From contig CM114271.1 of the NCBI GenBank assembly GCA_050084515.1, positions 32,426,001 to 32,490,000 of the forward strand: DNA of 64,000 nucleotides, written 5' to 3'. Each line of letters starts with the position of its first letter. Position 1 is the stretch's first letter. Positions 4,201-61,267 of this stretch are shown here, piece by piece. The position numbers and the translations under genes were made by a program. The stretch is from Blasia pusilla (taxonomy: Eukaryota). Under the pieces are notes generated by a model. That model did no database searches and had not been told where the DNA came from. It worked only from the letters and a program-made list of their open reading frames with translations.

Positions 4201-7200
4201 TAGGAATTGATGGAAGAGGGAGTCTATGTAGAAAATATGCACGATGAATGTCATAAAGGAAAATGTCATAAAAGATACTACACAACTTCTACAAAAATAC
4301 CATAATTGAACACTACTTACAAATGGTAGAAAAGAATTATGCTCACATAGGACAGAGGGGCTTTAATATGACAACTTGTCCTATAGTTCTTAGAGAAGCG
4401 ACAGGTATATTTGTGATAAGAGCATCTGGTTGTCTCTCGATGCCCACCAACGTATGATTGAGAGTCGAAAACTAGAGCATATACAACAAAGACGAGTTAC
4501 TAAAAATGGAATGAAAGTGAAAAAATCCTAGCTAAGAAGAGGAGCATAAAATTTCGAAATAGAATGAAAAGTAAGATAGGAAAAGGAGAGAAAAAAATAG
4601 TTTTAAGAAAAACTTAGTATAAATGGAATGAAAAAGGGGAAAAAAAAACCTAACTAAGAAGGAAAGAAAAAAAATTCCAAAAGGAGTAAGAAGTGAGAAA
4701 GGATAAGACAAAAAATTAAGACAAAAATAGGAGAGAAAATATATATTTTTAATTAATAATATTGAAAAGAAAAAAAAGTAAATAAGAAGGAAAGTTTGGA
4801 AATTTATTTATTCTTAAATAATTTTCATTTTAAAACTAAGTAATTAAAAAATCTTTTTAAAAACTAATTTCTTTCACTTGAGCCTAATCCAATCTTAACC
4901 CGAGCCTAGATTCAAACGGGCCATATGTCACAACGGCTCCATCTAGCCACCGCTACATCAATGGGGTTTATCCCCCGCCGTTAGATCAACGGCATTGTTA
5001 GATCTTTGACGTTGATCTAATGACACCATTAACAATGATAAACTCCATGGTTGTGAAGCCGTTGGGTCTGACCCTAATCGAGCCTTATGGAGATGAGAGA
5101 ATATAAGAAATATATGGAATTATTATTTCGCCGGGTGTACATAGAATTAAGATGTCCAAGGAAGTAAGGTGGATTTTCTGAATTATAATGATGGGTACAC
5201 ATGTCAGTCGTGAATTGGTCCACGTGGTCTAATTGAAATGTAATATATTTAGCAGCAAGAGAAACAAATGGCAAATTTGAGATGCACCACATGACAAAAA
5301 GCACGTTGGGAATTTGACATCCAAATTCATAATACAACGATGGATTCTGTCACAATATGTTTCCAAAGTAGTTGCCTTGAGTACTAGGCGGAGGAAGCTA
5401 GAGGGATTGTTAGGAGTAGCTACAGATAAGAAAAAGATTTGAGACAATTTCTTAGGAATATAGTGAATGGGCATAGGACTGGAGCATTTGGTAGCAAAGA
5501 AGGGTTATGGGATTTCATAGTTTTAGGTACATTATTTTTAATATGGGGTAACACTTATAAGAAATGTATGGCATTATTATTTCTCCATAGAAGATGTCCA
5601 TCTATGTTAGTACCGCATGTAACAAGTTCACTATAGATTGGGTGAGAAAATGTTGGGTGCAATTGAAAGCAATGTGGGATGAGTATTGTGGATGCAATTG
5701 GTATCGGCGCTCAGGTAAGAGCAACACCTTGTTCACATATGATGCATGTGATGGCCAACATATTGATATTAAAATGGTGATTTCAAATTAATGTGAGTTT
5801 GTCCATGAAACCAAGTCTTACATATAGGATATATGAATTGGATAACGGTGATTTACAAGTGATAAATGATTACATGTGCGGTGTGTTATGTTTTGCCAAG
5901 TGATGTGCATGTTATAGTGTGAAGTCATTTTCTGAGATTATGAAAGGCTATTTTTGGGAGGAAATAGGTTAGGGGGATGACGGGTCTGGCCCAATGACCA
6001 TCCTGCTCATAGTGAGGTTCAATTCCTCTCCGTCATAAATGCCAAAGTTGGCAGTGGCAGTGGATATCGCCTTCTCATTTCAAGTGAGGTTTGTACATAC
6101 TTGCCTACTCTAACACAAAGTGTTGCTCTGAAAACTACAAAGTTATAATGATCACTTCACAGCAAGATCTCTAGTTTGAGTAGCACACGTCGTTTCCTTT
6201 CAGCTTGTGAAGGCTTCTTAGATACTTGTGGGATTGGCTTAGTTGCCTTCTCCTCCAAGGGTGGTTCGCATAAGATGGTTGGTGATGCCTCTTGGTTGTT
6301 TGAAACATGTGTGCTCTGACCCTTTTTTCCAGATGCGGACCCAATTGCAAATTCTCTTTGACTTGTGGGCCTCTTCAATTGATATTGTGGGGTTTGGACG
6401 TCCTCCTTGCATAAATCCATATCTTTCACATCCCTTGGGAACTACCCTTTACTCGATCCTTCCAGCACATCATACGTGGGGATGGAATCCCTTCAGGCAT
6501 CTCCAAAGAGTGGAGCCTCTAGAGGACTCAATCTTGTGCCCAGACAAGGCTAATGGCCAATTGAGGATTCTTACATACACTCAATAGGATACAATCATCA
6601 TGTGTTGTTGGAGATCACTTGTAACTCTCTAAAGGTGTATCATCTGCAAGCTTCAAGCCATAGTGCTTTTTCGATGAAGTGCAACTTTTCACTTCACTCT
6701 TCCCTTTTCTTTGCGTGCTTTTCATCACTATTCTTCTAGCTTTTCATCGCGATGATAAAAAAAAAATGCCTTTGTAGACATTGTGTTCTTGCGATGGGTG
6801 CAAAGATAGAAGCAAGTCAAGTAGATCCAAATGAAAAATGAGAGTATTGTCGAACCATGGAGTTTTCACATCGTTTTTGTGGAGCATGTGTTTGATTGTC
6901 CAAGAAGGAGCCGGTTAGTTGTTCACATAGGGGCCGGAAAACGTGAACGTATCAACAGCATCAGTAACATGAATAGCATGAAATACATATGCTATGCGTA
7001 GTTGAGTAGAGATTTGAAAGCGCATTAGCAACCACGTAGTCTTTCGAGCTAACTAAAGCTAGTAGTTTGTAGGCACCTACACACTATGCATTGAACCTTA
7101 ATAAAGCTCAAAGAAGTTGAACTTTTCTATGGTGTATTTTTGGATTTCTACATTGAAAATTGCACTCGGAAGTAAAGCGAATGTCATCTTTGTATTTCTC

Positions 7201-7209
7201 GATCTCGTT

Positions 7210-7316
7210 TGTCGTACGAATCCACATCGTCATACAACATACATCGCTGACATACCATACTCACATACATACATAACATAGATGAGAGCATCCACAAACA
7301 TAAGTGTACCACAACT
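7210..7316 (-). repeat. Repeat Y2 (107 bp), forming the 3' terminus of copy 1
   Basis: Direct repeat of 7685-7791. Ends ...TACGACA against host flank. Confidence 0.93.
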
Positions 7317-7682
7317 GAAATCCGTGGAAGACCTACTGTCATAAAACATGTATAGAATCACATACAATCGAGCCAAACCCACTCCACGATGGGAGAATCT
7401 AGGTCGAAGCTTGCGGGAAACACCATAGCCAAGAGCTCTACTCACTACCAAGGCTAACTCCCAACGCAACAGGCTCAACTCAAAGAACTAACTGTTCTTT
7501 GAGTGCACTCCACCTTATATCCTCCAACCTAAGAGCGGGCCTAATGGAAAAGTCACCCCCAATTGAGTAACCCCCAACCCTATGTATGAAACTGCATCTC
7601 TACCTAGCCACTACGGTCCTACATAAGGTATGGCCTCTACTAGCACACTATACTCTACGACATAATCCGTATGGTCATGACA
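7316..7682 (-). repeat. Second copy X2 (367 bp) of the terminal repeat, sandwiched between Y1 and Y2
   Basis: Near-identical to 14989-15356. In element sense it is preceded by Y1 plus GC and followed by Y2. Confidence 0.95.
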
Positions 7683-7684
7683 GC

Positions 7685-7791
7685 TGTCGTGCGAATCCGA
7701 TTCGTCATACAACATACATCGCTGACATACCATACTCACATACATACATAACATAGACGAGAGCATCCACAAACATAAGTGTACCACAACT
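7685..7791 (-). repeat. Repeat Y1 (107 bp), immediately after the PPT
   Basis: Direct repeat of 7210-7316 (5 mismatches by eye). In element sense it ends ...GCACGACA, followed by GC and then the TGTCATG start of X2. Confidence 0.93.
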
Positions 7792-7800
7792 CGCCCCCCT
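7792..7800 (-). promoter_or_regulatory. Polypurine-tract-like plus-strand primer (AGGGGGGCG)
   Basis: G-rich run directly abutting the start of Y1 and downstream of the pol stop codon. No comparable tract abuts X2. Confidence 0.65.
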
Positions 7801-7963
7801 AACTCGCGGTTAGGTCCCTCTAACTCCCATGTAGCCCTATACATCTACTACATGCTATACACCTTCGTGGGTGCACGAATCAGAAGGCGGGGTGCTAGGT
7901 TGCCCCATCGTTAGTCGTACATCTGTAATCCATATCATGCAAAGATCAAGTCATCTACCTCTC

Positions 7964-8545
7964 CTAAGTACATTGAGGACAAACCCACCTTCCAGTAGGA
8001 ACAACATCCATACGTGGAGTCAAACACATCATGTGCCAACCCCTAGAACACCGATCACACACCAACATACGGGTTGCGTTACCAGCAGACCCACACAACA
8101 TGCACCTCAAGCAAGCACGTATCATGGCTAAGCTTGGGTTAACAATACCATCCATATTTGGAAGATGATATGGTGCACAATTACGCACATGGTCCTTCCA
8201 AACAACTCCATCACGATCCTCCAACATGAGAACTCCAGAAGTTAACACCTCGTGCACTCGTAAAATAGTGCGGCCTACTGTCACATCCAACATTGTCGGT
8301 GCAATCTGCTGCAAATAGACATAGTCCCCTACATGGAACCTAGGAATCGATGGTCGATAACCTCCACCCTGAATGGTTGCATACCGCAACGTATCCCTGT
8401 GTTGAGCAATGGCAAGATTCTCAAAGGCTGTTGGCATAACTCTCCGAAAGAGCTCTCCCCGTTGAGAACACACTCTCATCCACATCTGTGAGTGATCAAG
8501 GTTCACCACCTCACTAGACTCCCGACGAATTGCTGCGAGCAAGTG
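7964..8545 (-). pseudogene. Integrase C-terminal region (SH3-like segment) ending in a PHD finger
   Basis: FHVGDYVYL...HVRNCAPY resembles an integrase CTD. It is followed by the C4-H-C3 pattern CMLC...CDRC...WHMMC...WVCPQC at 8104-7967. The first part matches copy 2 at about 63810-64000. Confidence 0.85.
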
Positions 8546-9404
8546 ACTCCCAAACCACCTGGATAGATCACATGACCCAAGTACTCAACATCCTCATGGA
8601 AGAACTTACACTTTCCTGGATGCAAACGTAGACCATGAGCTTTCAACCGCTCAAACACCATCTGCAAATGTATCTGATGCTCCTCCACCGTGTTACTGAA
8701 CACCAAGATATCATCAATGTAACACGGAACAAAATCCAACCCTGCTAGGATCCTATCCATAACTCTCTAAAACTCGGCAGGTGCATTCTTCAACCCAAAG
8801 GGTAAGAATTTCCACTGGTACAAACAATCCTTGCCATGAGAGTTGACACCCCAAAATGTTGTCTTGGCCTGTCACTCTCCCGAATCGGAAATTGATGGTA
8901 TCCTGCCCGAAGATCCAAAGTACTGAAAATCTTTGCATGTCCCATCACATCAAAGATCTCCTCAGGTGTAGGCATGGCATACCTATTGGCCTTGGTTTGC
9001 CGATTGAGAGGACGGTAATCTCCACACATCTGCCTATCCGTGTAGTTGCCATGCATATCCTTTTTAGCAGGTATGACAATGGCTGATGCATACTCTCCAT
9101 GTGACAACTCCACTAATCCAGCCTCCAAAAGGTCCAACGTCCTACTCTGAATCAGGTCCCTCTCCATATCACTATATCGGTAGGGACGACGGAAGATTGG
9201 CGTATCACTAGCCAAATCAATCCGTATACTGGGTCCAATCAGAGAACCCAACTCCTTCATGCTAAAGGCAAAACAACTCCTATAAGCACGTAGGAATTGT
9301 GTCAAGCGTCGTTTCTCACCTCTCGTAAGCTTGGGCCCAAGTAATGGCTCCCAAGTCTCCTCCACTGGCACACTAGAGGGAGAGGATGATGCCATTGGTC
9401 GCAC
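8546..9404 (-). pseudogene. Reverse transcriptase of copy 1 (C-terminally deleted)
   Basis: PIFRRPYRYS, CGDYRPLN, FSTLDLRAGYHQ, PFGLKNAPAEF, YIDDILVFS, KCKFF..VEYLGH: Ty3/gypsy RT motifs with one frameshift. Confidence 0.95.
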
Positions 9405-9639
9405 ATAACCCCCTCACAAGATGGTACACCCTTAGCTACACCATCATCTCGAGCAAATAACTCCTCCACCAAAGCATGAGCAACCAACTCCACATGCCCA
9501 CCATTACATCCCATTTACTCCAAGGATGCAAAATACTACTCTCCTCGCCCCACCGATGTCTCTCTTGCCCCGGTAGCCATCAAGCTCATTACAAGGGGTG
9601 GAAGACCCACAGACATAGTCCGAAGTTGATTTGCTCGCC

Positions 9640-10591
9640 ATACCAAGACTCAAAATCCAAGTCAAACAATTCAGGTCCATGGCCTGACCCAACACATGAC
9701 GTCGTGAAGCCTCAGAAATGGAAGCAACCGATGTCACACCAGTAGCAAATCCCATCACACGCTCTCTCTCATTAGCGTTAGGCTCCACCAACTGTCGCAC
9801 ATGAGAATCCCATACAAGCCCGGGACCACCTTCCTTGTATGCATGTGACGAGGGAAAAGTCACAAATGTGGGTAGTGCCATCCTAGGCTGGCCCACACGG
9901 TTCAACACTGCCATGGGTGACCCATCAATAACCCTCACCACCTGAGAAAGTCGCCCAATATCCAAGTTACTATCCACTGTAAGGCAAGGATCCCGCTGCA
10001 CTGCATCATATGCTCAGCGTAGAACCTCCCTAGGCAACAAGTTTGTCCACCACAAGCGTGGACGATGTGCACGCGAGGCAACTCGCGCTGCATCCAACAA
10101 CACCGCTGGTCCAATCCAAGACCGCATCTCATGAACACTCGCCATCATCCGGGTCCGAGCGTCACCCAACAATGAACATTCTCCAGAATGTAAGCTAGAG
10201 CACGTGTCTGATGAACCTGAAGATTTTGTAACACCCGTAACATCTCCCAAAACAATCGAGACCTAGGGTCGTGAAATCCCTCACCACGACCAGCACGTGT
10301 ATGACCCTGACATGGCCATCCAGAAATCACCAAATCCACAGGACCAACCCTCTCAAGGTCCTGCGCCCCCAACAATGCAATGTGTGACGGCAAAGCACGC
10401 TGGTACCCACGAATAGCTAATGACGGCAATAACTCAGGATATCTCCGCATCAACTGACCAATATGTCGGGATGAGACTCTCTGGGCCGTCTCATCTCGCT
10501 CCATATACACGTATCTCCGCACAGGAATACCGGCCTACAACACTGCAGCCAAACCACTGCTAATCCCACCAAAGAGATCTAACACACAAAT
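9640..10591 (-). pseudogene. DNMT3-like cytosine-5 DNA methyltransferase domain within pol (copy 1)
   Basis: Motif I VLDLFGGISSG, motif II ERD, motif IV VDLVISGWPCQG (PCQ 10315-10307), motif VI YILENV (ENV 10183-10175), motif VIII AHRPRLWWTNL, motifs IX-X ERERVMGF...RRHVLGQAMDL. The motif order is unpermuted. Two stops and one 1-bp frameshift are present. Confidence 0.92.
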
Positions 10592-10989
10592 GCCCTCCGG
10601 CGGATACTGCCATACAATGGGTGTAGTATCCAAAGGAGATAACCCAACTGGACCAGAAGTAGGAGTCCGTCGTGGGGCCTCCTCTTCCTCGTGAGGTATA
10701 AAAGCCTCACACCAAGCCTCCTGCACTAGGCCATCAGCCTCCTGCCATAGTGCACCACCTGAACTCCAAAGTGGCACATCCAATGATGAGGATGCCACTG
10801 CTGCAAAAATAGGGACCTCCTCATGCACAGGAGAATCCATAGCAAAAACATTACCCTCCAAAAAGTCTCCTGGCCAAGTGACTACTCCACTAAAACCAAC
10901 CAGAGATGCTAACACTGTTGGGGAAGACCCTCCTGGTCGAGCCCCATAAATAAATCTCACAGGAACTTGGCTCATACGTCCATCCCCGG

Positions 10990-11333
10990 ACTATCAACCA
11001 AGTCTATAAGACAGTCCAGTAATCCATCTGAAAACCCATCGGGTACAATAATGCTCCTCCAACTAGTACATCATACGACTCGGCTGATGTGACTACCGCA
11101 GATACTCCCAACCGAGAACTATCAGTCGCATGATCTGGTCTCAACTGTACAGAAAACTTCTCCCCTGTCATGAATTGAGACCTATCATTGGCTCCTCCAA
11201 GTGATGTTTGAATCTGGAATGGGCAAGGCTCAAGCTCTCACCTCCGAATACCCAAACCAATACATGCCGCCTTTCCCAACATCAAAGGTTGGGCACTAGA
11301 GTCTAACAAGACTCTATCTGGTCTATACACCTG
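10990..11333 (-). pseudogene. Aspartic protease domain of copy 1
   Basis: Reading through the TGA at 11334-11336 gives RVLLDSSAQPLMLG...YDVLVGG (retropepsin D(S/T)G-like site, here DSS, plus the DVLVG flap motif). It has an 8-bp deletion relative to copy 2. Confidence 0.8.
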
Positions 11334-13433
11334 TCATGTAGGACTCACCAATCGGAATATCCCACTCCGGTTGTCCAACATACATACACCAGGTGTAAGC
11401 CTCTCACGATCAATGGCTGGCCGGGCTAGTAATGCAACCATCTTCGCCGCTGTTGCCTGCCAAGTAGCACTGGTACTCAATGCTACACCTAACATAGAGG
11501 GTCGCTCCACCGCAACACCCTCATCCACCTCAGCACGTGTAGTAGTAACACCCCCACGTCCACACAACGTGGCTGCTAGCTGAAATACATGAGCTAAGTC
11601 AACTCCTAAAGCCATCAGCTCCATGGCCGAAAATAATGGGGATCCCAACACTGAAGTTGCCATCCGCAATACTGCATTGGATGTTGCATCCGTGTCTACT
11701 ACACGCGATGTAGATGCCTCAGTCCCCACTGTCGGCTCAATAGGCTGCATAGGAACCATGGATGGAGTCCTAAGCACCCCTGACAACAAGAATGAATGGG
11801 GAAGCCTAGCCTGCCTCCCAGCCTCATCCCTCTGTGGGTCCAACTCCATAGTAGCACCACGTGGCTCTGACGCTCGAGTGGCTCCTCTCGTAACTGCAGC
11901 CGATGCCTCAACCTGTGCTGCACTCGCCATATAAGAGAGATCATCCCCTCCATAAGAGGTGGAAGCCCCTGCTCCCAAACCTGATCTATGTTGGATACCA
12001 GCCATAGTAGCCAACTTCTGCTCCAACTGCTCAATCATGGCAGCCATAGATGACTCTGTCGTAGTGGTAGGGGTAGCCACCGTAGGCTCTCCAACCACCG
12101 GTCCACCTCTACCACCTCTACCACCTCGGCCTCTCGGAGCTACTCCACCGCGGCCGCGGCCTGATCTCAACTCTGGATGAAGATCAAAGCAACGCTCTAG
12201 AGGATGACCTGGTCTCCCGCAATGATCACACTGAGTTGGGGCCGACTGAGGCCCATCCTCCAAAGTCCGTCTCCCATCCTCTTGGGGACAAAACTTCCTA
12301 ACATGATCACCTCCACATGTCCAACATGATTGTCCTTGCTGCAGGGCAGCAAATGAAGGCAATGGTCTCTGCGCAAGTGTCCCTCTTGGACCAGACTGAG
12401 GTCGTGTGTACCCCCCACGACTCCCACTACTACTACCACCACCACTACTACGAGATTGTGAGGTGGGTTGCTGAACATGAGCACTAGTAGTTGTATCCCT
12501 ACTGAATGCGGATGTCACCACTCTCTCCTTCACCATGTTAAGCTCAATCTTCTCAGATAGAGCAAACACATGGGTCAATGTGGGTGAATCATCACTCATA
12601 AGAGTAGCATCACGTACCTTGCGGCGCAACTCTCTGTCCAAGATCCCATACCAAAATTGGACTGCCTAAGCCTCAGTCACACCCTGGGTAACTAAAATCA
12701 AGCGTCGCATACGAGTGTATGCCTCACGAAGACTCTCACCAGTCTTTCGCTCAAATTCTTGAAGACTCTTCAACTTCTCTGTCTTCACTCCCTGATAGTT
12801 TCTCTTCAACCTCTTGAAGAACTCTGCAACCGGGCTAAACGATGGTGGGGCACTAGTACCCCCACAGGTACCCCTACTGGTACCTCCACTAGTACCCCCA
12901 CTGGTACTCCGGCTCGTACTCGTACCACTCAACGTCGGGCTGGCTGGCATAGTAGGAGCACTACTACCAATACCACCATGGGTGATAGACACATAGCTTG
13001 GAGACCAATATTGTCTCCACGCCTCAATCTCAGCAACATGGTCCTTCCTAAACTCATGGTAATCATCCAAGTGTTGAAACAACCCCTTCCAAGCCAAGAA
13101 GGGTGTAAACAACGTGGCGTTCCGCAACATCTGCATATCACACCACGTATCAAACTCCTGCATGAAGTCCTCCAACTCAATGGTGCCCACTACACCCGAG
13201 TATCGTCGTGGGCCCTTCATGGCCCCATATATCCCGTCCATGTCCCAAATCAATGGAGCTGCAACACTCGATAACAACGTAGAAGACTCGGTGTTTGGAA
13301 CACCCTCGTCCTCCTCTTCATCAACCGTCGGAAGTGGAAAAGGTAGCCGATACCTAAATCCACTCCGTGTGAAAGCACCACTGTCCGCGCCACGGTCCCC
13401 AACCTGACCACCTGACAGCTCCGTGATGACCAA
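11334..13433 (-). pseudogene. gag: gag of copy 1 (capsid-like region, two CCHC-type zinc knuckles, RGG tract)
   Basis: ORFs 12666-13433 and 11334-12641 share one frame split by a TAG. Motifs CWTCGGDHVRKFC, CDHCGRPGHPLERC and RGRGG repeats are present. The first in-frame ATG is at 13241. Confidence 0.85.
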
Positions 13434-14977
13434 CGCCGATGCTGCACCACCACCAAATTATCACCACTAAGTAACCAAGTGACGTCGATGTCGCTATACT
13501 ATTCTTGCTCTACTAGCTATGGGTGTAGGCAACCTAACCTATCATCACCACAAGAAGCCTCCCACAATCTATTGGTCATCACTCCAACCTCATTACCGGT
13601 AGCACACAGGAATAACACTACTCTGGAAATCAGCGTCAACCTTAACAATGGGCCCGCAAGCAAGAAGCAACGATGGAGGGGGTCCAAACACAAGAAGTCC
13701 AACGAAAACCCTCCAATCGCAAATGGAAATCAAGATAACACAATCCACAAACGTGGCGCCCCCTGAATCCACAAAACCCACCACACAATTCTAACGCAAT
13801 AGCTACTCCGCCGCGGGTCGATGACGTGCTAGTCGAACTCGCACCACCTGAAAATATCACCTAAATGGAGAGGCTACACCGTACTATGCGCTAGAGGTCC
13901 ATCAACCAAAAACCTGAGATGCATAAAATGCCTAACACATCTCCGAACAGCACCAAATGAGCTACACCCGTGTGTACACTGGCATAGTTAAGAACTCAGC
14001 AGTTAAGCGTCTTCCAGGCAGAATAGCCCAAAGATGGGTGACCAGTTATGCAACACTCAAATCACAAATCCTGCAAAAACTGCCTCACGCCAAGCAAGCA
14101 AGCAAGCTTGCTTGCTTGCTCCTTGCTCCTTGCTCCGCCTGCAAAAGCTTGCTTGCTCCTTGCTCCTTGCTCCTTGCTCCGCCTCTCACGCCCACTCGCC
14201 ACCAGTTGCCTCGAAACGCCGAGAAATGCTCGAGACATGCCCCGTTCGCCCCATTCGCCATGCTTCGCTATGGAGAAAGGCCCAACCAGGGCGCCCCCAA
14301 CGAGATAGGCGTCTCCAACAATGAACGAGTCACCAACCAACCAGCCCCTCCGATCCGCTGTCCACCATAGCCAGATCTTGAACTAGTCCGCAAAATTTCG
14401 ATCAGTAATTACTTCACAAATCCTAGACCAAAATTGAATCTATTTCAACCAAAATTCAATTGACCACCATAGCTATCTCTCCACAAAAAATCAGCTACAA
14501 CCAAGCTCTGCACTCCGAGCTAAAAATCAGACAAACTTGTTGTCCATACTCCTCCAAAATCGCAAATCCGATAGCGCTTCCGCCTAGTTTCATGCACGCA
14601 GAAATCCACAACGCTCCACACACCCAAGCAGATAGCGTCACATGAGATCACAATACAAGTAGCAACAGGAACCTCTCACCCGATCTGGAGGAACTTCAAG
14701 AGAGCTTCCGCACTCCAAGCTCTCCACATCAGAAAACTCTCCACATCAGAAAATCGTCGAACACGAACCAGAATCTTCAATACTTGATAACTTCCAACTC
14801 CCTTGAAGAAATCTGGCGATCTAAAGCGCGTTGGAAATCTCTCAGCAAGGCGCTTCTTTCCCAACCAACCACGCACCAGATTCACACCTCCAACATAGGC
14901 CACAAGCCACAAACATCCACGGCTGACTACACAATCAGCCCTAACCAGATCCTAGTGATCCACAATCGATCTACGTC

Positions 14978-14989
14978 AGTTCTTTGAGT
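14978..14989 (-). promoter_or_regulatory. Primer-binding site complementary to the predicted RNA 5' end (self-priming type)
   Basis: ACTCAAAGAACT overlaps the last base of X1. It is the exact reverse complement of AGTTCTTTGAGT at 15162-15151, which starts 30 nt after TATAAG. It lacks the TGG start of tRNA-type sites. Confidence 0.8.
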
Positions 14990-15356
14990 GAAATCCGTGA
15001 AAGACCTACTGTCATAAAACATGTATAGAATCACATACAATCGAGCCAAACCCACTCCACGATGGGAGAATCTAGGTCGAAGCTTGCGGGAAACACCATA
15101 GCCAAGAGCTCTACTCACTACCAAGGCTAACTCCCAACGCAACAGGCTCAACTCAAAGAACTAACTGTTCTTTGAGTGCACTCCACCTTATATCCTCCAA
15201 CCCAAGAGCGGGCCCTAATGGAAAAGTCACCCCCAACTGAGTAACCCCCAACCCTATGTATGAAACTGCATCTCTACCTAGCCACTACGGTCCTACGTAA
15301 GGTATGGCCTCTACTAGCACACTATACTCTACGACATAATCCGTATGGTCATGACA
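14989..15356 (-). repeat. 5' terminal repeat X1 (368 bp, TG...CA) of copy 1
   Basis: Direct repeat of 7316-7682; by eye 4 substitutions and one 1-bp indel. Contains TATAAG at 15192-15187. Confidence 0.95.
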
Positions 15357-15653
15357 GGTTTGCATCACTCTAACAATGGCATGTGAGCATGAAATAAATA
15401 GCCCATAGGAGAATAAGGCCTCGGAGGCTGTAGACCCTAGAATGCAGGTCGCCTCTTTATCAGTGGCTGTTGTGAGCAAGATCCTAATTGTCTAAAGGAA
15501 AAAAAAGAATATGGGAGCGTTCAAAAAATTGAAATGTCATCATTACACGACCCCACAACCTAAGAGTCGTCGTAAAGAATCAGCACAAAGAACTCAAAGG
15601 ACCTAAAATCTAAACCTCCCACAAAGCTAAAATGACTCGTGTCAATTTCCAAC

Positions 15654-25422: not shown

Positions 25423-25606
25423 AAGATAGTCGGGGAAAACCTTACCTCCAAGTTAACCATGCGTTTGACTCATTCTTTTTTTCTTTCTTTCATCTCTTTT
25501 GGGTATTGCCCAGCAAGATAGTCGGGGAAAACCCTACCTCCAAGTTAACCATGCGTTTGACTCATTCTTTTTTCCTTTCTTTCATCTCTTTTGGGTATTG
25601 CCCAGC
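25423..25606. repeat. Tandem duplication, 2 x 92 bp
   Basis: Unit aagatagtcggggaaaacc...gggtattgcccagc starts at 25423 and again at 25515; the copies are near-identical. Confidence 0.9.
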
Positions 25607-28272: not shown

Positions 28273-28796
28273 ATCCACTTTATTATAATAACAAGCCTCA
28301 ACGAGGACAAAATAAGGTAATGACAACTCAAAAGAGGGAGAATTAAAAAAATGCAAAAAGAAACTAGGAACTAGCCAACACAAACACCCACTCAACGCGT
28401 TACACAATTGATCACATGAAACAAATTTGACAAGAGTATTTGTGGTTGGTCAAACATGAACGGACGATGAGGGCGAGCGACCGCCACCGTTTCTACACGA
28501 CGTTTGAATGCCAAAGCTTGTGCACGTTATAAGGCCAATGAGATGCATTGCCGAAAATAAGTAGTGACTACACACAAAGAGAAGGATTATGAGAAGGGGC
28601 AAGGTCATGATTCTCAAGGGAATGGTGAGCATATGATTTGAGGAAAGTATTAAAAGATACATGTAAATGACCGAATACTTCCACTGTGAAAAGAGTAAAT
28701 CCATGGTTTGCATGTCTCACAGCATAACTGATTTCCTTGATTCTTGTTGTTGCTTCGGCCACTGAACCTTTAGTATGTGTGGCACGATACACCAAG
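28273..28796 (-). mobile_element. 5'-truncated copy of the CRE-like non-LTR element (RLE C-terminus and 3' UTR)
   Basis: Translation VYRATHTKGSVAEATTRIKEISYAVRHANHGFTLFTVEVFGHLHVSF parallels 50977-51537. It shares the 3' end AATAAAGTGGAT with the copy at 50850. Confidence 0.85.
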
Positions 28797-50849: not shown

Positions 50850-53800
50850 ATCCACTTTATTATAAAAGAAACCTCATAAGAGGACAAAGAAAGGTAATAA
50901 CAACTCAAAAGAGGAGTCAAAAAATGCATACAAGAATGCAAAAAGAAAATGGCAACAAGCCAACGTAGACACCGGCTCAACCGGCTACAAGATTGATAGT
51001 CTGAAACAAGTCTGACAAGAACACGAGTGGTTGGTCAGACGTGAATGGACGACGACGCGAGCGACCCCCCACCACCTCCGCACGACCTATCAATGCAAAG
51101 GCTTGTACACGTTGTAAGGCCACTGAGATGCATTGCCGAAAATAAGTAGTAACTACCGAGAGAGAAGGACTACGGGAAGGGGCAAGGTGATGGTTCTCGA
51201 GGGAGTGGTGAGCACATGTTTTCAGGAAAGTATCAAAAGACACATGTAAATGACCGAATACTTCCACTACAAAAGGAATAAATCCATCAGTCGCATGTCT
51301 CACAGAATAACTTAACTCCTTGATTCTTCCTGCAGCTTCGGCCGCCAAACCTTTGGTATGTGCGGCTCGACACACCAAGACAAAACGTGTTGGATCAACA
51401 ACCACCACATCACCTAGTGTCCGGAATCCACCTCGAGACATAACAAGATCCACTCTCCGACAAGAGGTTGCTTGTGTGGTTGAAGGTAGGACGTGGAGTT
51501 GCTCTTGCCCAAGGATGTATCCTGCAGTACGAGCCACCGATGCTACCGCCTCTCTTATGACGTCATGTGTGGCCGTTCGTTCTCCACCATGTGCACATCA
51601 GAGAATATGGATACCCTTGGCATCAATGGGATCCCCGCATACACAATTCGGCACACCTAAGAGAGAAGGATGGGGAAGTCCACGACGTAACCGCAAAGCT
51701 GTCAAGAATATACTTCGAGGAAGACGAAATGGAAGAATAAGAGGACTTTCGATAAGCCACGCCCCCGCTCTAGTACGCACACATGAACGTAGACGAGCTC
51801 GATTAGCGTCAGAGGATGCCTTGGAGAGAATGCTGGAAAAGTTTATTTTATGCATATTCTCGGAGATATGCTCTTGAAGTCGATCAAGCCCTTTTGTAGT
51901 CAATTGACTGAAAGGGGATATAATTGCTTGTGTAGCAAGAGGAAGAAGAGCTCCTGTAGATCTCAATTGTTGTTGAAATAACAAGTCTCCCTCCTCTACA
52001 TGGGCGATATGATCCATCAAGATAGGTGTATCTCCTTGGAGAAACCTTGAAGCCATAATTGGTGCTACCAATGCCCAACTCCCCAAAAAGTTTGCGGGAG
52101 CAGATGCGACTATGGAGGACAGTCCCACCCCTCCAAAAGAAATAGGCAAGATAGCTTGTCGTGAAGCAAAGACACCATCCTCTCCCTCAAAGGTATTTGG
52201 GCCAAGAAGTTGACCAAAAGTTGCCAAGATAGAAGCATCAAAAGAGGCCAACCGATGTAAGAACCTTGAAGTGGGAGGACAAGTGCGAAGAAGGTAGGAA
52301 GGACGTCGTAGAAAACATTTTGAGAGAATCCCATAAGCCACTTGGGGATCCCCTAGATGAGGTAACAAATGAAGTCATTCCACGTCTTTCAAAAGGGCCT
52401 CATCCAAGAACTTTGAGATATAGTCGATGAAGCCAATTGGGACCCCAAGAACTCTAACCCCTTCAATGTAGATGGGAAAATCAAGAGTAGGTGGGGTGAA
52501 TATTGAGGGAAGGCATGAAGGAGACCATACTCCACATTTACTAGGTTGGACTTTAAGGTTTAAGAAAGAGAGTTGCTCCACGGAATGGGTATAAGCAGGA
52601 ACCACTTCAGAAGGAGGACCTATAATGTGATTGTCATCAGCAATAGAAGGGAAAAGACAAGATGGAAATGCTTGCGCTGATGCTCGAAGGGCACGAAAAT
52701 GGGCAATGGCAAAGAGTGGGCCCCCCATGGGATCATCTTGACGTGTGCCACCAGTCGATTGTAGAATACTATATTCCCTAGAAGTAGCATGATGGGAATA
52801 GATAATGGGGATATCATAGGCATAGAAGGAGCCAACAAATGGAGTGAGGCTCGCAAGTTGTCCTCCTGCACAACGTAACTCCTCAAAGATGGCCGCACGA
52901 GAAACTGAATTGAATGCGCTAGCCATATCAACTTGAATCGCTACCCAATCTGGATGAATATCAAGAGTGGAGAAAATCCCATGCACCACAGCCTCACAAG
53001 GAGTTGCCACTCCAAATTGATGAGGAAATAAGTGGGCACTAAAGTGAGGACGAAATTGCAAGCATAGGGATCGACTAACCAAGCGGTATAAAACCTCTCC
53101 AATAGCCAAGGGGCGCACACCTGAAGGAGGCTTATCCATAGCCAACAAACGACAAGCCCCTAAGAGTCTAGAGATAGAGAATGGAAGACGACCTGTCGCC
53201 ATATGTGCACACACCTTATATAGAGAGACAAAGCCACTTGCTGAATCTGCTGGGATAAAGCAATCGCGGAGATGCTCAAAAACCATCCCTGATAGCCCGC
53301 TTGCTGATAAGCGAGGAGTATGCAGAAAAGCCCTTGAGAAAACCTCCAATTCAAGCTCCAAGTCAAGGTCCGTTGTATAGTCTTCCACAAAAGATGGAGC
53401 ATCGCCACTTGAAGGAGGATGAAGAGCTTCTAAGAGAGCCACTATTTCCGCACTTGGAACTGCCGGAGAAAGAGGACCCAATGCTCGAGTTGCACGTGAA
53501 AACTCACCAACCTGCCCCAAAAGTAGACTTCGTCGAAGGCGTTGTTTTATTGAAGGCCTCCCATGATTGGCATGTTGAGTGGGATGAGCCGCAGCTTAGG
53601 CCTCTGCTCAAAGTACATGCTCATTCTGAAGATTCTCCCAATCCCCAAACATAAAGCGTTGAATACGTGTGGAGGTTTCACGATGACCGTTGCACCACCC
53701 CTTGGAGGGAGGACTAAAACCCATTGTGGGAAGAGTAATAGGAGATACCAAGAATTTATATTTGTGGGGTCAGGCGGTAACCTTTCTAATGGTAAAAGCA

Positions 53801-55435: not shown

Positions 55436-55804
55436 TGTCATGACCATACGGATTATGTCGTAGAGTATGGTGTGCTGGTAGAGGCCATTCCTTATGTAGG
55501 ACCGAAGTGGCTTGGTAGAGATGCGGTTCCATACATAGGGTTGGGGGTTACTCACTTGGGGGTGACTTTCCCAGTAGGGCCCGCTCTTAGGTTGGAGGAT
55601 ATAAGGTGGCTTGCCCTCAAAGAACAGTCAGTTCTTTGAGTTGAGCTCATATGCGTTGGGAGTTAGCCTTGGTAGTGAGTAGAGCTCTTGGCTATGGTGT
55701 TTCCCGCAAGCTTCGACCTAGATTCTCCCATCGTGGAGTGGGTTTGGCTCGATTGTATGTGATTGTAAACGTGTTTTATGACAGAAGGTCTTTCATGCAT
55801 TTCA
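55436..55804 (+). repeat. 5' terminal repeat X1 of copy 2 (369 bp, TG...CA)
   Basis: Homologous to 14989-15356. TATAAG at 55600-55605. No Y sequence lies upstream. Confidence 0.92.
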
Positions 55805-55816
55805 CTCAAAGAACTG
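55804..55816 (+). promoter_or_regulatory. Self-priming type primer-binding site of copy 2
   Basis: ACTCAAAGAACTG is the reverse complement of CAGTTCTTTGAGT at 55629-55641. The A at 55630 is 30 nt after the TATA start. Confidence 0.8.
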
Positions 55817-57188
55817 GAGTAGATCGATGGTAGCTTCGATTGTAGATCAATAGGATCTGGTTAGGGTTGATTGTGTACTCAGCCGTGGATATTCGGGGCT
55901 TGTTGCCTATGTTGGAGGTGTGAATCAGGTGCGTGGTTGGTTGGGAAAGAAGCGCCTTGCTGAGAGCTTTCCAACGCGCTGTAGATCGCCGGATTTCGTG
56001 AAGGGAGTTGGAAGTTATCAAGCATTGAAGATTCTGGTTCGTGTTCTCGACAGTTTTCTGATGTGGAGAGCTTGGAGTGCGGAAGCTCTGTTGAAGTTCA
56101 TCCAGATCGGGTGAGAGGTTCCTATTGCTACTTGTATTGTGATCTCATGTGAAGCTATCTGCTCGAGTGCGTGGAGCGTTGCGGATTTCTGCGTGCATGA
56201 AACTTGGCGGAAGCGCTGTCGGATTTGCGGTTCTAGAGGTGTATGGACAACAAGTTTGTCTGATTTTTAGCTCGGAGTACGGAGCTTGGTTGTAGCTGAG
56301 TTTTTGTGGGGAGATATCTATGGTGGTCAATTGAATTTTGATCGAAACAGATTTGATTTCGGTCACGTATTTGTGAAGTAATTTCTGATCGAAATTTCGC
56401 GGACTAGCTCAAGGTCTGGCTATGGTGGACAGCGGATCGGAGGGGCTGGTTGGTTGGTGAGGCTTCGAGGCAACTCGTGGTAGCTCGGGGCGAGTGGGCG
56501 TGAGAGGCGGAGTAAGGAGCAAGGAGCAAGCAAGCAAGCTTGCTTGCTTGGGCGTGAGGCAATTTTTGCAGGATTTGGGATTTGAGTTTTGCATAATGGT
56601 CACCCATCTTTGGGCTATTCTCGCTGGAGGACGCTTAATCGCTGAGTTCTTAACTATGCAGGTGTCTCATGTTGTAGCTCATTTGGTCTTTGTTCGGAGA
56701 TGTGTTAGGCGCTTTATGCATCTCAGGTTTTTGGTTGATGTACCTCTAGCGCATAGTACGGTGTAGCCTCTCCATGCAGGTGATATTTTCAGGTGCTGAG
56801 AGTTCGACTAGTACGTCATCGACCCGCGGTGGAGTAGCTATTGCGTTAGAATTGTGTGGTGGGTTTTGTGGATTCAGGGGGCACCACGTTTGGTGGATTG
56901 TGTTACCTTGATTTCCATTTGCGGTTGGAGGGTTGTCGTTGGACTTCTGTGTTTGGATCCCCTCCATCGTGCTTCTTCTTGCTTGCGCCCATTGTTAGGG
57001 TTGACGCTGATTTCGAGTAGTGTTACCTGTGTGCTCCGATAGTGGGGCTGCAGTGATGACCCGTAGACCGTGGGAGGCTTCTTGTAGTGATGAGAGGTTA
57101 GATTGCCTACACCCATAGCTAGTAGAGCTACAATAGTAGAGCGACATCGACGTCACTTGGGTAATTTGGTGGTGGTGCGGCATCGGCA

Positions 57189-59691
57189 TTGGTCATCACG
57201 GAGCTGTCGGGTGGTTTGGTTGGGGACCGTGGTGCGGACAGTGGTGGTTTCACACGGAGTGGATTTAGGTATCGGCTACCTTTTCCACTTCCGACGGTTG
57301 ATGAAGAGGAGGATCAGGGTGTTCCAAACACCGAGTCTTCTACGTTGTTATCGAGTGTTGCAGCTCCATTGATTTGGGACATGGACGGTGGATATGGGGC
57401 CATGAAGGGCCCACTAACGATACTCGGTGCAAGTGGGCACCATTGAGTTGGAGGACTTCATGCAGGAGTTTGATACGTGGTGTGATATGCAGATGTTGCG
57501 GAACGCCACGTTGTTTACACCCTTCTTGGCTTGGAAGGGGTTGTTTCAGCACTTGGAAGGACCACCCATGGATGATTACCATGAGTTTAGGAAGGACCAT
57601 GTTGCTGAGATTGAGGCATGGAGACAATATTGGTCTCCAGGCTATGTGTCTATCACCCATGGTGGTATTGGTAGTAGTGCTCCTACTATGTCAGCCAGCC
57701 CGACGTTGAGTGGTACGAGTACGAGCCGGAGTGGGGTACCAGTGGAGGTACTAGTGGGGTACTAGTGGAGGTACTAGTGCCCCACCATCGCTCGATCCGT
57801 TGCGAGTTCTTCAAGAGGTTGAAGAAGAACTATCAGGGAGTGAAGACGGAGAATTTGAGGAATCTTCAGGACTTTGAGCGAAAGACTGGTGAGAGTCTTC
57901 GTGAGGCATACACTCGTATGCGACGCTTGATTTAAGTTACCCAGGGTGTGACTGAGGATCAGGCAGTCCAATTTTGGTACGGGATCTCGGACAGAGATTT
58001 GCGCCGTAGGGTACGTGATGCTACTCTTATGAGTGATGATTCACCCACATTGACCCATGTGTTTGCTTTATCTGAGAAGATTGAGCTTAACATGGTGAAG
58101 GAGAGAGTGGTGACATCCGCATTCAGTAGGGATACAACTACTACTTCTCGTGTTTAGCCGCCCACCTCACAGTCTCGTAGTAGTGGTGGTGGTAGTAGTA
58201 GTGGGAGTCGTGGGGGGTACACGCATTTCACTCAAAGAACTAGGTCACCTCAGTCAAGTCCTAGAGGGACATTTGTGCAGAGACCATTGCCTTCATTTTC
58301 TGCCCCGCAGCAAGGACAGTCATGTTGGACATGTGGAGGTGATCATGTTAGGAAGTTTTTTCCCCAAGAGGATGGGAGACGGACTTTGGAGGATGGGCCT
58401 CAGTCGGCCCCAACTCAGTGTGATCATTGCGGGAGACTAGGTCATCCACGAGAGCGTTGCTTTGATCTTCATCCAGAGTTGAGATCAGGCCGTGGCCGTG
58501 GTGGAGTAGCTCCGAGAGGCCGAGGTGGTAGAGGTGGTAGGGGTGGTAGAGGTGGACCAGTGGTTGGAGAGCCTACGGTGGCTACCCCTACCACTACGAC
58601 AGAGTCATCTATGGCTGCCAAGGATTGAGCGTTGGAGCAGAAGTTGGCTACTATGGTCGGTATCCAAAGATAGATCAGTTCAGGGAGCAGGGGCTTCCAC
58701 CTCTTATGGAGGGGATTATCTCTCTTATATGGCGAAAAGATAGGTTGAGGCATCACCAGCAGCGATTCTGAGAGGAGCCACTCGGCGTCGAGCCACGTGG
58801 TGCTACTTGTGGAGTTGGACCCACAGAGGGGTGAGGTGGGAGGCAAAGCTAGGCTTCCCGGTCATTCTTGTTGTCGGGGTGCTTAGGACTCCATCCATGG
58901 TTCCTACGCGAGCCTATTGAGCCGACAGATGGGGATCGAGGCATCGACATCGCGTGTAGTAGGCACGGATGCAAAGCATCCAATGCAAGATTGCGGATGG
59001 CAACCGGTGTTGGGATCCCCTTTGTTTTCGCCACGGAGTCGATGGCTTTAGGAGTTGACTTAGCTCATGTATTTTGATTAGCGACCACGTTGTGTGAACG
59101 TGGGGTATTATGCTACACGTGTTGAGGTGGATGAGGGTGTCGCGGTGGAGCGATCCTCTATGTCGGGAGTAGCATTGAGTACCAGTGCTACTTGGTGCAA
59201 AGCAGCGCGCGGCGAAGATGGATGCATTACCAGCCCGGCCAGCCATTGATCGTGAGAGGCTTACACTTGGTGTATGTATGTTGGACAACCGGAGTGGGAT
59301 CTTCCGATTGGTGAGTCCTACAGACAGGGTGTATAGACCAGATAGAGTCTTGTTAGACTCGGTGCCCAACCTTGATGTTGGGAAAGGCGGCATGTATTGG
59401 TTTGGGTATTCGGAGGTCGAGCTTGAGCCTTACCCATTCCAGATTCAAACATCACTTGGAGGAGCCAATGATAGGTCTCAATTCATGACACGGGAGAAGT
59501 TTTTTGTACAGTTGAGACCAGATCATGCGACTGATAGCTCCCGGTTGGGAGTATCTGCGGTAGTCACATCAGCCGAGTCGTATGATGTACTAGTTGGAGG
59601 AGCAATATTGTACCCGATGGATTTTCAGATGGATTACTGGACTGAGACAGCGTCTTATAGACCAGGTTGGCAGTCCGGGATGGACGTATGA
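57189..59691 (+). pseudogene. gag: gag and protease of copy 2 (frameshifted)
   Basis: Fragments ELEDFMQEFDTWCD, CWTCGGDH, CDHCGRLGHPRERC, RVLLDS and YDVLVGG match copy 1. Confidence 0.85.
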
Positions 59692-60074
59692 GCCAAGTTC
59701 TGTGAGATTTATTTCTGGGGCTCGACCAGAGGGTCTTCCCAACAAGTGTTAGCATCTGTGGCTGGTTTTAGTGGAGTAGTCACTTGGCCAGGAGACTTTT
59801 TGAGGGTAATGTTTGCAATGGATTCTCCTGCGCATGAGGAGGAAGAGGAGGTCCCTATTTTTGCAGCAAAGTGGCATCCTCATCGTTGGATGTGCCACTT
59901 TGGAGTTCAGCGGTGCACTACGGCAGAGGCGTCGCCTAGTGCGGGAGAGGCTTGGTGTCGTGTTATACCTCACGAGGAAGAGGAGGCCCGGGGTGGACTC
60001 CTACTTCTTGCCCCTGTTAGGTTATCCCCTTTGGATACTACACCCATTGTATGGCAAAGTATCCGCCGGAGGGC

Positions 60075-61030
60075 ATTTGTGTGTTAGATCTCTTTGGTGG
60101 GATTAGCACTTTGGTTTTTGGCGCGATGTTGTAGGCCGGTATTCGTGTGCGGAGATACGTGTATGTGGAGCGAGATGAGACGGCCGAGAGAGTCTCATCC
60201 CGACATATTGGTCGATTGATGCGGAGGTATCTGAGTTGTTGCCGCCATCAGCTATTCGTGGGTACCGGCATGCTTTACCATCACACATTGCATTTGTTGG
60301 GCGCAGGACCTTGAGAGGGTTGGTCCTGTGGATTTGATGATTCTTTGGATGGCCATGTCGGGTCATACACGTCTTTGGTCGGGTGAGGGATTACATGACC
60401 CTAGGTCTCGATTGTTTTGGGAGATGTTACGGGTGTTACGACATCTTCAGTTCATCAGCAGTGCTCTAGCTTACATTCGTGAGAATGTTCCATTGTTGGG
60501 TGACACTCGGACCCGGATGATGGCGAGTGTTCATGAGGTGCGCTCTTGGATTGGACCAGCGGTGTTGTTGGATGCAGCGCGAGTTGGCTCGCGTGCACAT
60601 CGTCCACGCTTGTGGTGGACAAACTTGTTGCCTAGGGAGGTTCTACGTCAAGCATATGATGCTGTGCAGCGGGATCCTCGCCTTACAGTGGATAGTATCT
60701 TGGATACTGGGCGACTTTCCCAAGTGGTGAGGGTTATGGATCGGTCACCCATGGCAGTGGTGAACCGTGTGGGCCAGCCTAGGATGGCACTACCCACATT
60801 TGTGAGTTTTCCCTCGTCACATGCCTACAGGGAAGGTGGTCCGGGGCTTGTATGGGATTCTCATGTACGACAGTTGGTGGAGCCTAATGCTGATGAGAGA
60901 GAGCGTGCGATGGGATTTGCTAATGGTGTGACAGCGGTTGCTTCTATTTCTGAGGCTTCACGACGTCATGTGTTGGGTGAGGCCATGGACCTGAATTGTT
61001 TGACTTGGATTTTGAGTCTTGGTATGGCCG
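60075..61030 (+). pseudogene. DNMT3-like methyltransferase domain of copy 2
   Basis: ICVLDLFGGIS from 60075, GWPC (PC 60353-60358), ENV 60481-60489, RAHRPRLWWTNL and ERERAMGF...RRHVLGEAMDL. Confidence 0.92.
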
Positions 61031-61267
61031 AGCAACGTCGACTTCGGACTATGTCTGTGGGTCTTCCACCCCTTGTAATGAGCTCGATGGCTTTGGGGCC
61101 CGGTAGAGGCATCGGCTGGGGGCGAGGAGAGTAGTATTTTGCATCCTTGGAGTAGATGGGATGTAATGGTTGGGCATGTGGAGTTGGTTGCTCATGCTGG
61201 TGGAGGAGTTATTTGCTCAGATGATGGTAAGGGTGTACCATCTTGTGAGGGGGTTGCGTAGCAGCCA

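Follow-up and report, generated by a model that had tools for sequence, protein, structure and literature searches.

A Ty3/gypsy family of Blasia pusilla has split terminal repeats as its standard form and probably integrates from end-joined cDNA opened at an internal palindrome

How does a retroelement with a DDE integrase come to have long terminal repeats (LTRs) that are split and permuted? LTR elements with a DDE integrase and retroviruses are taught to integrate linear complementary DNA (cDNA) by the outer edges of their LTRs, with circles as by-products, and the two-LTR circle is regarded as a dead end in retrovirology. The question is raised by a 64,000-nt stretch of Blasia pusilla DNA (assembly GCA_050084515.1, contig CM114271.1, positions 32,426,001 to 32,490,000 of the forward strand), hereafter the window, which holds one complete copy of a Ty3/gypsy element on the minus strand (copy 1, 7210–15356) and a second copy on the plus strand (copy 2, 55436–64000). 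We found that members of the family normally have this split layout, which is neither a duplication nor an assembly artefact. We consider it probable that this normal architecture of a high-copy family reflects cDNA whose U5 end had been joined to its U3 start and which was opened by integrase at a palindrome inside the LTR; the joining, the cut and the target-site duplication (TSD) are deduced.

Read along the minus strand, copy 1 has the order X1-PBS-internal-PPT-Y1-GC-X2-Y2 (PBS, primer-binding site; PPT, polypurine tract), with an internal part of about 7.2 kb. The 5′ repeat X1 (A1, 14989–15356) begins TGTCATG, and within it lie a TATA-like box, a hairpin and the point where the transcript presumably starts. 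At the other end, Y1 (B1, 7685–7790), the first 106 nt of the predicted reverse-transcribed LTR, ends in CACGACA and is separated by a GC dinucleotide (7684–7683) from X2 (A2, 7316–7682), the remainder of the 3′ LTR, which meets the terminal Y2 (B2, 7210–7315) at the joint TTTCA/GTTGTGG. X1 and X2 were 98.6% identical over 368 nt and Y1 and Y2 were 95.3% identical over 107 nt, the start of Y being ambiguous by 1 base (an A common to 7791 and 7316). Between Y1 and X2 lies the site CACGACA/GC/TGTCA (7678–7691), in which both chromosomal ends stand back to back. Its core GACAGCTGTC (7688–7679) is a perfect 10-bp palindrome, and the 14-mer CACGACAGCTGTCA occurred exactly once in the window, while 0.29 chance matches are expected with up to 2 mismatches.

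Copy 2 is truncated by the window edge about 1.15 kb before its expected end (the edge aligns with copy 1 position 8355) and is about 91% identical to copy 1. Its first base is the start of X (55436–55804), the same PBS word follows as after X1, and its upstream flank is unrelated and without Y. The window thus holds two independent copies that begin at X and whose flanks are unrelated to each other. A sequence-only reading of this locus had proposed the split layout, a copy 2 starting at X with no Y upstream, and a palindrome that places both chromosomal ends inside the LTR; the pairwise X and Y identities, the alignment with its unrelated flank and the retention of the palindrome in divergent relatives (below) bear these out, respectively. 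In a comparison with reads, Y2 departed from the family majority at 7216 and 7283, where Y1 matches it, the changes being C-to-T and G-to-A at CG in element sense. They fit the decay of methylated cytosines, a possible reason for the greater divergence of the Y pair compared with the X pair.

The element encodes, in order, gag, protease (PR), a C5 cytosine DNA methyltransferase (DNMT), reverse transcriptase (RT), RNase H, a DDE integrase and a PHD finger, as determined by Pfam in the window copies and in the open reading frames (ORFs) of two contigs, L015 and L016, that were obtained by scanning prokaryote genome contigs with a DNMT alignment. Both window copies are interrupted by stops and frameshifts and were read as natural pieces. 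RVT_1 was matched in both, and the DDE integrase in copy 2 only (Integrase_H2C2, 1.8e-16; rve, 3e-09; at 62896–63573); in copy 1 a deletion of about 1.7 kb between 8546 and 8534 has removed the integrase core along with RNase H and the C-terminal part of RT. As in Ty3/gypsy elements, the order PR-RT-RNase H-integrase with RVT_1 and RT_RNaseH matches was present (window pieces, L015 and L016), a PBS follows U5 and a PPT precedes U3, but in place of two whole terminal LTRs with an adjacent TSD of 4–6 bp the repeats are split. A tyrosine recombinase (Phage_integrase) was not matched by Pfam in the scanned window pieces or in any L015 or L016 ORF. No chromodomain was found, and the integrase C-terminus carries a PHD finger instead. 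The Integrase_H2C2 and rve matches of copy 2, together with the lack of a tyrosine recombinase in the scanned ORFs, agree with the DDE integrase named in the sequence-only reading, which was right on layout and integrase and overlooked the C5 DNMT, the PHD finger and the self-priming PBS.

The position of the LTR was read from the two priming sites. The PBS CTCAAAGAACT (14978–14988, minus strand) stands directly after X1 and is of the self-priming type: it has no tRNA-type TGG start and is complementary to AGTTCTTTGAG in X1 (15152–15162, minus strand; X offset 195), with TATAAG about 30 nt upstream. The polypurine-type tract AGGGGGGCGA (aggggggcga, 7800–7791) adjoins Y1. Since the PBS adjoins X and the G-rich PPT adjoins Y, the reverse-transcribed LTR should be Y-GC-X (475 bp), and the X2/Y2 joint is then exactly a U5 end against a U3 start; on both points the earlier proposal was upheld by where the PBS and PPT lie. 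Self-primer and PBS are complementary in both window copies and in L015, although the words themselves differ between the two families. In minimum free energy (MFE) folds of the same three sequences, nt 1–12 paired with the PBS in each, and a TATA-like box stands at about −30 from the self-primer in all three, the transcript start itself being a prediction. Pairing of the 5′ transcript end with the PBS is the mechanism of Tf1. Elements of the Tf1/sushi and Tcn1 types resemble the present one in having a PBS of 11–12 nt complementary to the presumed transcript 5′ end; here the integrase C-terminus is a PHD finger, and the likeness is one of priming geometry. Self-priming has been predicted for the plant Tcn1 clade (PMC6317226).

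Of the relatives, L015 has intact ORFs apart from one in-frame stop (gag-PR-DNMT, then RT-RNase H-integrase-PHD), and its integrase, with HHCC and DD35E intact, is 62% identical to that of copy 2. It reads TAGGGGGGGCA, 106 nt, CACGACA-GC-TGTCACG, a 359-nt X and CTTGACAAAGAT, the last being complementary to ATCTTTGTCAAG within X, about 30 nt after a TATA-like word. A further contig of the same assembly, L018 (G001:C148), is about 87% identical to L015 and reads PPT, Y (106 nt), GC, X (360 nt), Y (106 nt) and 21 nt of unrelated flank, its Y copies being identical at 106 of 106 positions; a split layout that ends in GACA is therefore present in a second family too. In L016, the DNMT of which is 34% identical, AGGGGGGGAAG is followed by 112 nt, CACGACAGCTG and the contig end. 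The distance from G-run to palindrome is thus 106 nt in the window, 106 nt in L015 and L018, and 112 nt in L016, and CACGACAGCTG was invariant in all four aligned sequences from three divergent families, at an overall mean column identity of 64%. A search of the L015 and L016 assemblies for further ends returned only C148 and no 5′ end with its flank.

L015 and L016 sit in bacterial metagenome-assembled genomes (MAGs) labelled Synechococcales and Minisyncoccia, yet encode eukaryotic Gypsy-DNMT elements; most likely they are eukaryotic DNA misbinned into these MAGs. The ends of L015 (1–127 and 9159–9285) overlap exactly over 127 nt, so that it was assembled as a 9158-bp circle with one LTR, which could either come from a multi-copy element being collapsed in the assembly graph or be a genuine one-LTR circle. 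The motif GGACCTARCCG upstream of the G-run is also present in L015. Among proteins, the methyltransferase piece of copy 2 matched 44 longer ones, many with RT, RNase H, integrase or PHD domains; the best matches were from Marchantia polymorpha (62–78% identity) and Calypogeia fissa, followed by Sphagnum and metagenomes, and relatives also occur in Closterium, Riccia, Calypogeia and Marchantia. Judged by the protein matches, the host would probably be placed among liverworts or near them. DNMT precedes RT in the window, in L015 and in Klebsormidium nitens KFL_009030040, and lies between RNase H and integrase in L016 (3061–9516) and in the relatives P0036 and P0042; either there were two acquisitions, or the domain moved in one lineage that kept the same palindrome. 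Comparison of the relatives' polyproteins with viral contigs gave no match. A metagenome scan with an 18-nt pattern of the X/Y joint, which proved too short, returned 14 loci (L001–L014), all of them chance matches unlike X, Y or the internal part.

Whether the layout of one complete copy holds for the family was examined on raw whole-genome shotgun reads of run X20 (same species label; about 1/100 of the run), of which 16305 reads were placed on 6900–8530 at a likeness of at least 85%. The positions at which reads depart from the element were taken from the best 6 listed, each with at least 407 reads. At the X start (7682) 557 reads departed with an agreement of loose ends of 0.32, and at the Y end (7210) 689 reads departed with an agreement of 0.33; such low agreement indicates many different flanks beyond the X start and the Y end. 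At the X end (7316), by contrast, 693 reads departed with an agreement of 0.94 into one sequence, which in reverse complement is the PBS side that follows X1 and the X of copy 2. The same PBS-side sequence beyond the X end was found in contigs of X6 (same species label) and, with a variant PBS word, in one contig of X18 (another species label). The positions listed included no departures into unrelated sequence from either the Y start or the X end, although a minority of such copies is possible. Summed depth was about 1200 for the internal part, 2000 for X and 2300 for Y1 plus Y2, or about 1:2:2. Of the reads covering the X start, about half continued through GC into Y, so the family does not consist mainly of X-internal-Y copies mixed with solo X-Y units. 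The X/Y joint was uniform, with no insertion or deletion at 7310–7320 at the listing threshold of 5% or more. From a unique flank depth of about 0.3, the family may be put at about a thousand or more copies, a very rough figure based on few reads.

These termini speak directly to the suspicion that in copy 1 Y was duplicated just once, or that Y2 stems from a nested insertion or from faulty assembly. That suspicion draws on the window holding one complete copy only, and a family in which most copies were X...X or YX...YX would have agreed with it; on the reads the family ends at the X start and the Y end, the depth ratios are family-wide, L018 has the same layout in another assembly, and an element of K. 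nitens with DIRS-like repeats is in print (PMC5890265). The artefact explanation is refuted, and its remaining probability is negligible.

Two other definitions of the LTR were considered and ruled out. X alone (TG...CA, 367 bp) fails as X2 has no PPT next to it and the copies of the family terminate in Y; X-Y fails as the PBS follows X1 in 693 reads, about as many as at any joint. As side observations, at least 11 low-depth contigs of sequencing run X1, probably single loci, joined 7679–7682 to 7208–7217 through short variable fillers, and several of them had CCGC replacing GC-TGT. A 37-nt stretch just upstream of Y1 (7791–7827, including the PPT) is common to another abundant repeat family, which on either side runs on into a consensus of its own (867 reads on one side and 884 on the other, with agreements of 0.90 and 0.93).

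The split layout is also that of DIRS-type elements. In replication of the DIRS/PAT/Ngaro kind, RNA would run through X2 into Y2 and a Y1-GC-X2 template would bridge the cDNA ends into a circle, so that the palindrome joint would be newly made and the X/Y joint inherited. The same arrangement, A1-internal-B1-A2-B2, is described for such elements (PMC8969392; PMC5890265), and the odd single-locus joints of run X1 all lie at the Y-end/X-start joint. However, the unit ends coincide exactly with the PBS (after X) and the PPT (before Y) in two divergent families, a coincidence to be expected only where the units are set by reverse transcription of the ordinary LTR type, and the scanned ORFs held no tyrosine recombinase. 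We regard this cycle as distinctly unlikely here.

For the integration of an end-joined cDNA by the element's own integrase, the following course is proposed. Transcription would start inside X, about 30 nt past the TATA-like box; the first 11 nt of the RNA would fold back onto the PBS next to X and serve as primer for the minus strand in the manner of Tf1, and the G-rich tract abutting Y would prime the plus strand. The product of reverse transcription would be the linear cDNA (Y-GC-X)-internal-(Y-GC-X). As this molecule cannot yield X-internal-Y-GC-X-Y, its U5 end would first have to be joined to its U3 start, which would create the X/Y joint in a two-LTR circle or an RT-made equivalent. One integrase complex would then cut after CA on both strands of one palindrome, leaving the usual CA-3′OH ends with 2-nt GC overhangs, the normal processed end, and would insert the permuted genome X-internal-Y-GC-X-Y. 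The chromosomal repeats would be split because the reverse-transcribed LTR carries the integrase ends about 106 nt in from its edge. Such a cycle is consistent with itself: in the inserted copy, X1 alone would provide R-U5 and the PBS as well as the presumed start and its TATA-like box, Y1-GC-X2 would supply U3 and the 3′ R, and Y2 would be remade every round. Foamy-virus and HIV-1 integrases have been reported to cut palindromic LTR-LTR junctions (PMC1180852, PMC1905944). The wider proposition, that end-joined cDNA is the obligatory integration substrate throughout this DDE-integrase Gypsy lineage by way of an inherited palindromic double att site in the LTR, seems to us about evenly balanced.

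Several points weigh against this proposal. Neither a circle nor another joined molecule was observed, and the cut at the internal palindrome is a prediction for this integrase. The candidate TSD, AACC in the left flank (15357–15360, minus strand) and AACG in the right flank (7206–7209, minus strand), comes from one copy and agrees in 3 of 4 bases, as would happen in about 5% of cases by chance; a shifted match of the flanks at CAAAC is possible and would need ends that contradict copy 2, L018 and the reads. The uniformity of the X/Y joint favours precise or templated joining, since host end joining is usually untidier. A symmetric circle carries two identical palindromes, so X-Y-GC-X-internal-Y would be expected as often as the observed form, whereas all three elements (copy 1, copy 2 and L018; a small sample) have the form X-internal-Y-GC-X-Y; short-read joint counts fit both forms, which contain identical joints. 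The odd joints in the contigs of run X1 may represent a degenerate subfamily or imprecise joints.

Precision and polarity could be accommodated if the U5/U3 joint were made by RT jumping from the U5 end to the U3 start, giving a tandem LTR or concatemer without host ligation, with integrase still cutting the palindrome. A joint in which no variant reaches 5% fits polymerase copying better than end joining, the Y copies of L018 are identical, and the three elements share one polarity. End-to-end template jumping is known for other RTs but is not known for Ty3/gypsy RTs, and two palindromes would still be there to choose from. This route to the joint appears to us rather unlikely, though it is the best placed of the alternatives. 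That the TSD is a candidate, with 3 of 4 bases in one copy, would also suit integration by a tyrosine recombinase or other enzyme acting in trans in place of the DDE integrase, the split layout being otherwise known only from tyrosine-recombinase elements. Yet L015 has kept an intact HHCC and DD35E integrase, the ends are TG...CA with CA/GC/TG spaced exactly as 2-nt overhangs need, and the palindromic site is kept across families all of which encode integrase, making an enzyme in trans very improbable. Opening of end-joined cDNA by the element's own integrase remains the reading that we prefer.

Elements of this kind have been met before. KnitGypsy-Dnmt3 of K. nitens was given Gypsy domains and a DIRS-like repeat arrangement in the legend of Fig. 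4c of de Mendoza et al. 2018 (PMC5890265), with a DNMT embedded in a Gypsy pol and repeats A-coding-B-A-B as here. Its host is an alga, whereas the best protein matches of the window element are from liverworts, and the passages of that paper that treat it give no end anatomy, PBS/PPT analysis, palindrome or mechanism. The window integrase is 48% identical to that of KFL_009030040 (DNMT, RT and integrase), which may or may not be a copy of KnitGypsy-Dnmt3. By its embedded C5 DNMT and split repeats, the present element is assigned to the streptophyte 'Gypsy-DNMT3' lineage; the name is that of the literature, and the DNMT here was identified as C5 type (PF00145). A 2026 preprint mentions 'streptophytes (Gypsy-DNMT3)' in a passage that does not discuss the repeats (10.64898/2026.05.21.726589). 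A literature search on 'KnitGypsy' returned the 2018 paper only, and none of the titles or abstracts among the matches listed concerned split or permuted-LTR elements with a DDE integrase, in a search of literature and not of Repbase or Dfam. With the K. nitens Gypsy-DNMT3 in print, this kind of element was already known in one alga. The layout, the DDE integrase, the Y-GC-X LTR and the internal palindrome of the earlier interpretation stand, its mechanism is the best proposal at hand, and the novelty that it implied was overstated in view of PMC5890265.

Elements of the DIRS order (PAT, Ngaro, SymbioDIRS-Dnmt3 and TOC1) share the layout A1-internal-B1-A2-B2 and imply a circular or joined intermediate. 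They carry a tyrosine recombinase and make no TSD (PMC8969392), TOC1 being a non-autonomous DIRS element (PMC9940879), whereas the window element has a DDE integrase and an LTR-type PBS and PPT. Canonical Ty3/gypsy elements are alike in CCHC gag, PR, RT, RNase H, HHCC and DD35E integrase, PPT and TG...CA ends, but their integrase ends are at the LTR edges and those of the window element about 106 nt inside the LTR. What is shared with the foamy-virus and HIV-1 integrases (PMC1180852, PMC1905944) is a DDE integrase and, as its substrate, a CA...TG palindrome of two viral ends; in the viruses the palindrome is the ligated circle junction, of debated role in vivo. The window element inherits its palindrome as part of the LTR, the joint that would be ligated is a different one, and its chromosomal copies normally have the permuted form.

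The remaining coding features of copy 1 are all on the minus strand. A gag-like region with a CCHC knuckle lies in two ORF pieces at 11334–13457 (by translation; no Pfam match), and within it the ORF has at 12851–12919 four overlapping copies with a 12-bp period, encoding a Thr/Ser/Gly-rich repeat. The C5 cytosine DNA methyltransferase region (9504–10990) is broken by stops and has its Pfam match at 10148–10534 (PF00145). The N-terminal part of RT was found at 8790–9413, and the last ORF (7964–8584) holds the integrase C-terminal region and the terminal PHD finger and aligns with the integrase-PHD end of L015. Elsewhere in the window, 28273–28796 and 50850–51379 form a direct repeat of about 530 bp (22.6 kb apart, 80% identity), which may be what is left of a large, old element as its LTRs or may be another repeat present twice, and at 25423–25606 a 92-bp unit is repeated once in tandem with 98% identity.

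What is new here is a palindrome conserved inside the LTR, a geometry of self-priming and the termini at read level, and these make the mechanism testable. The family-wide chromosomal form can come about only through a U5–U3 joint and an opening of the DNA at an internal site. Since the copy number is high and intact relatives lie in public assemblies, the lineage offers a natural setting for the old question whether a DDE integrase can act on a joined or circular substrate in vivo. Annotation is affected as well, in that LTR finders built around a pair of complete LTRs with TSDs beside them will set the boundaries wrongly or call such elements DIRS. With a C5 methyltransferase and a PHD finger of the element's own, this lineage could also serve for work on how unintegrated DNA is methylated or targeted to chromatin. 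If the joined substrate is indeed obligatory, split direct repeats would mark a circular integration substrate and not tyrosine recombinases as such, and this would fit an origin in which DIRS-type elements adopted such a Gypsy cycle by swapping the integrating enzyme.

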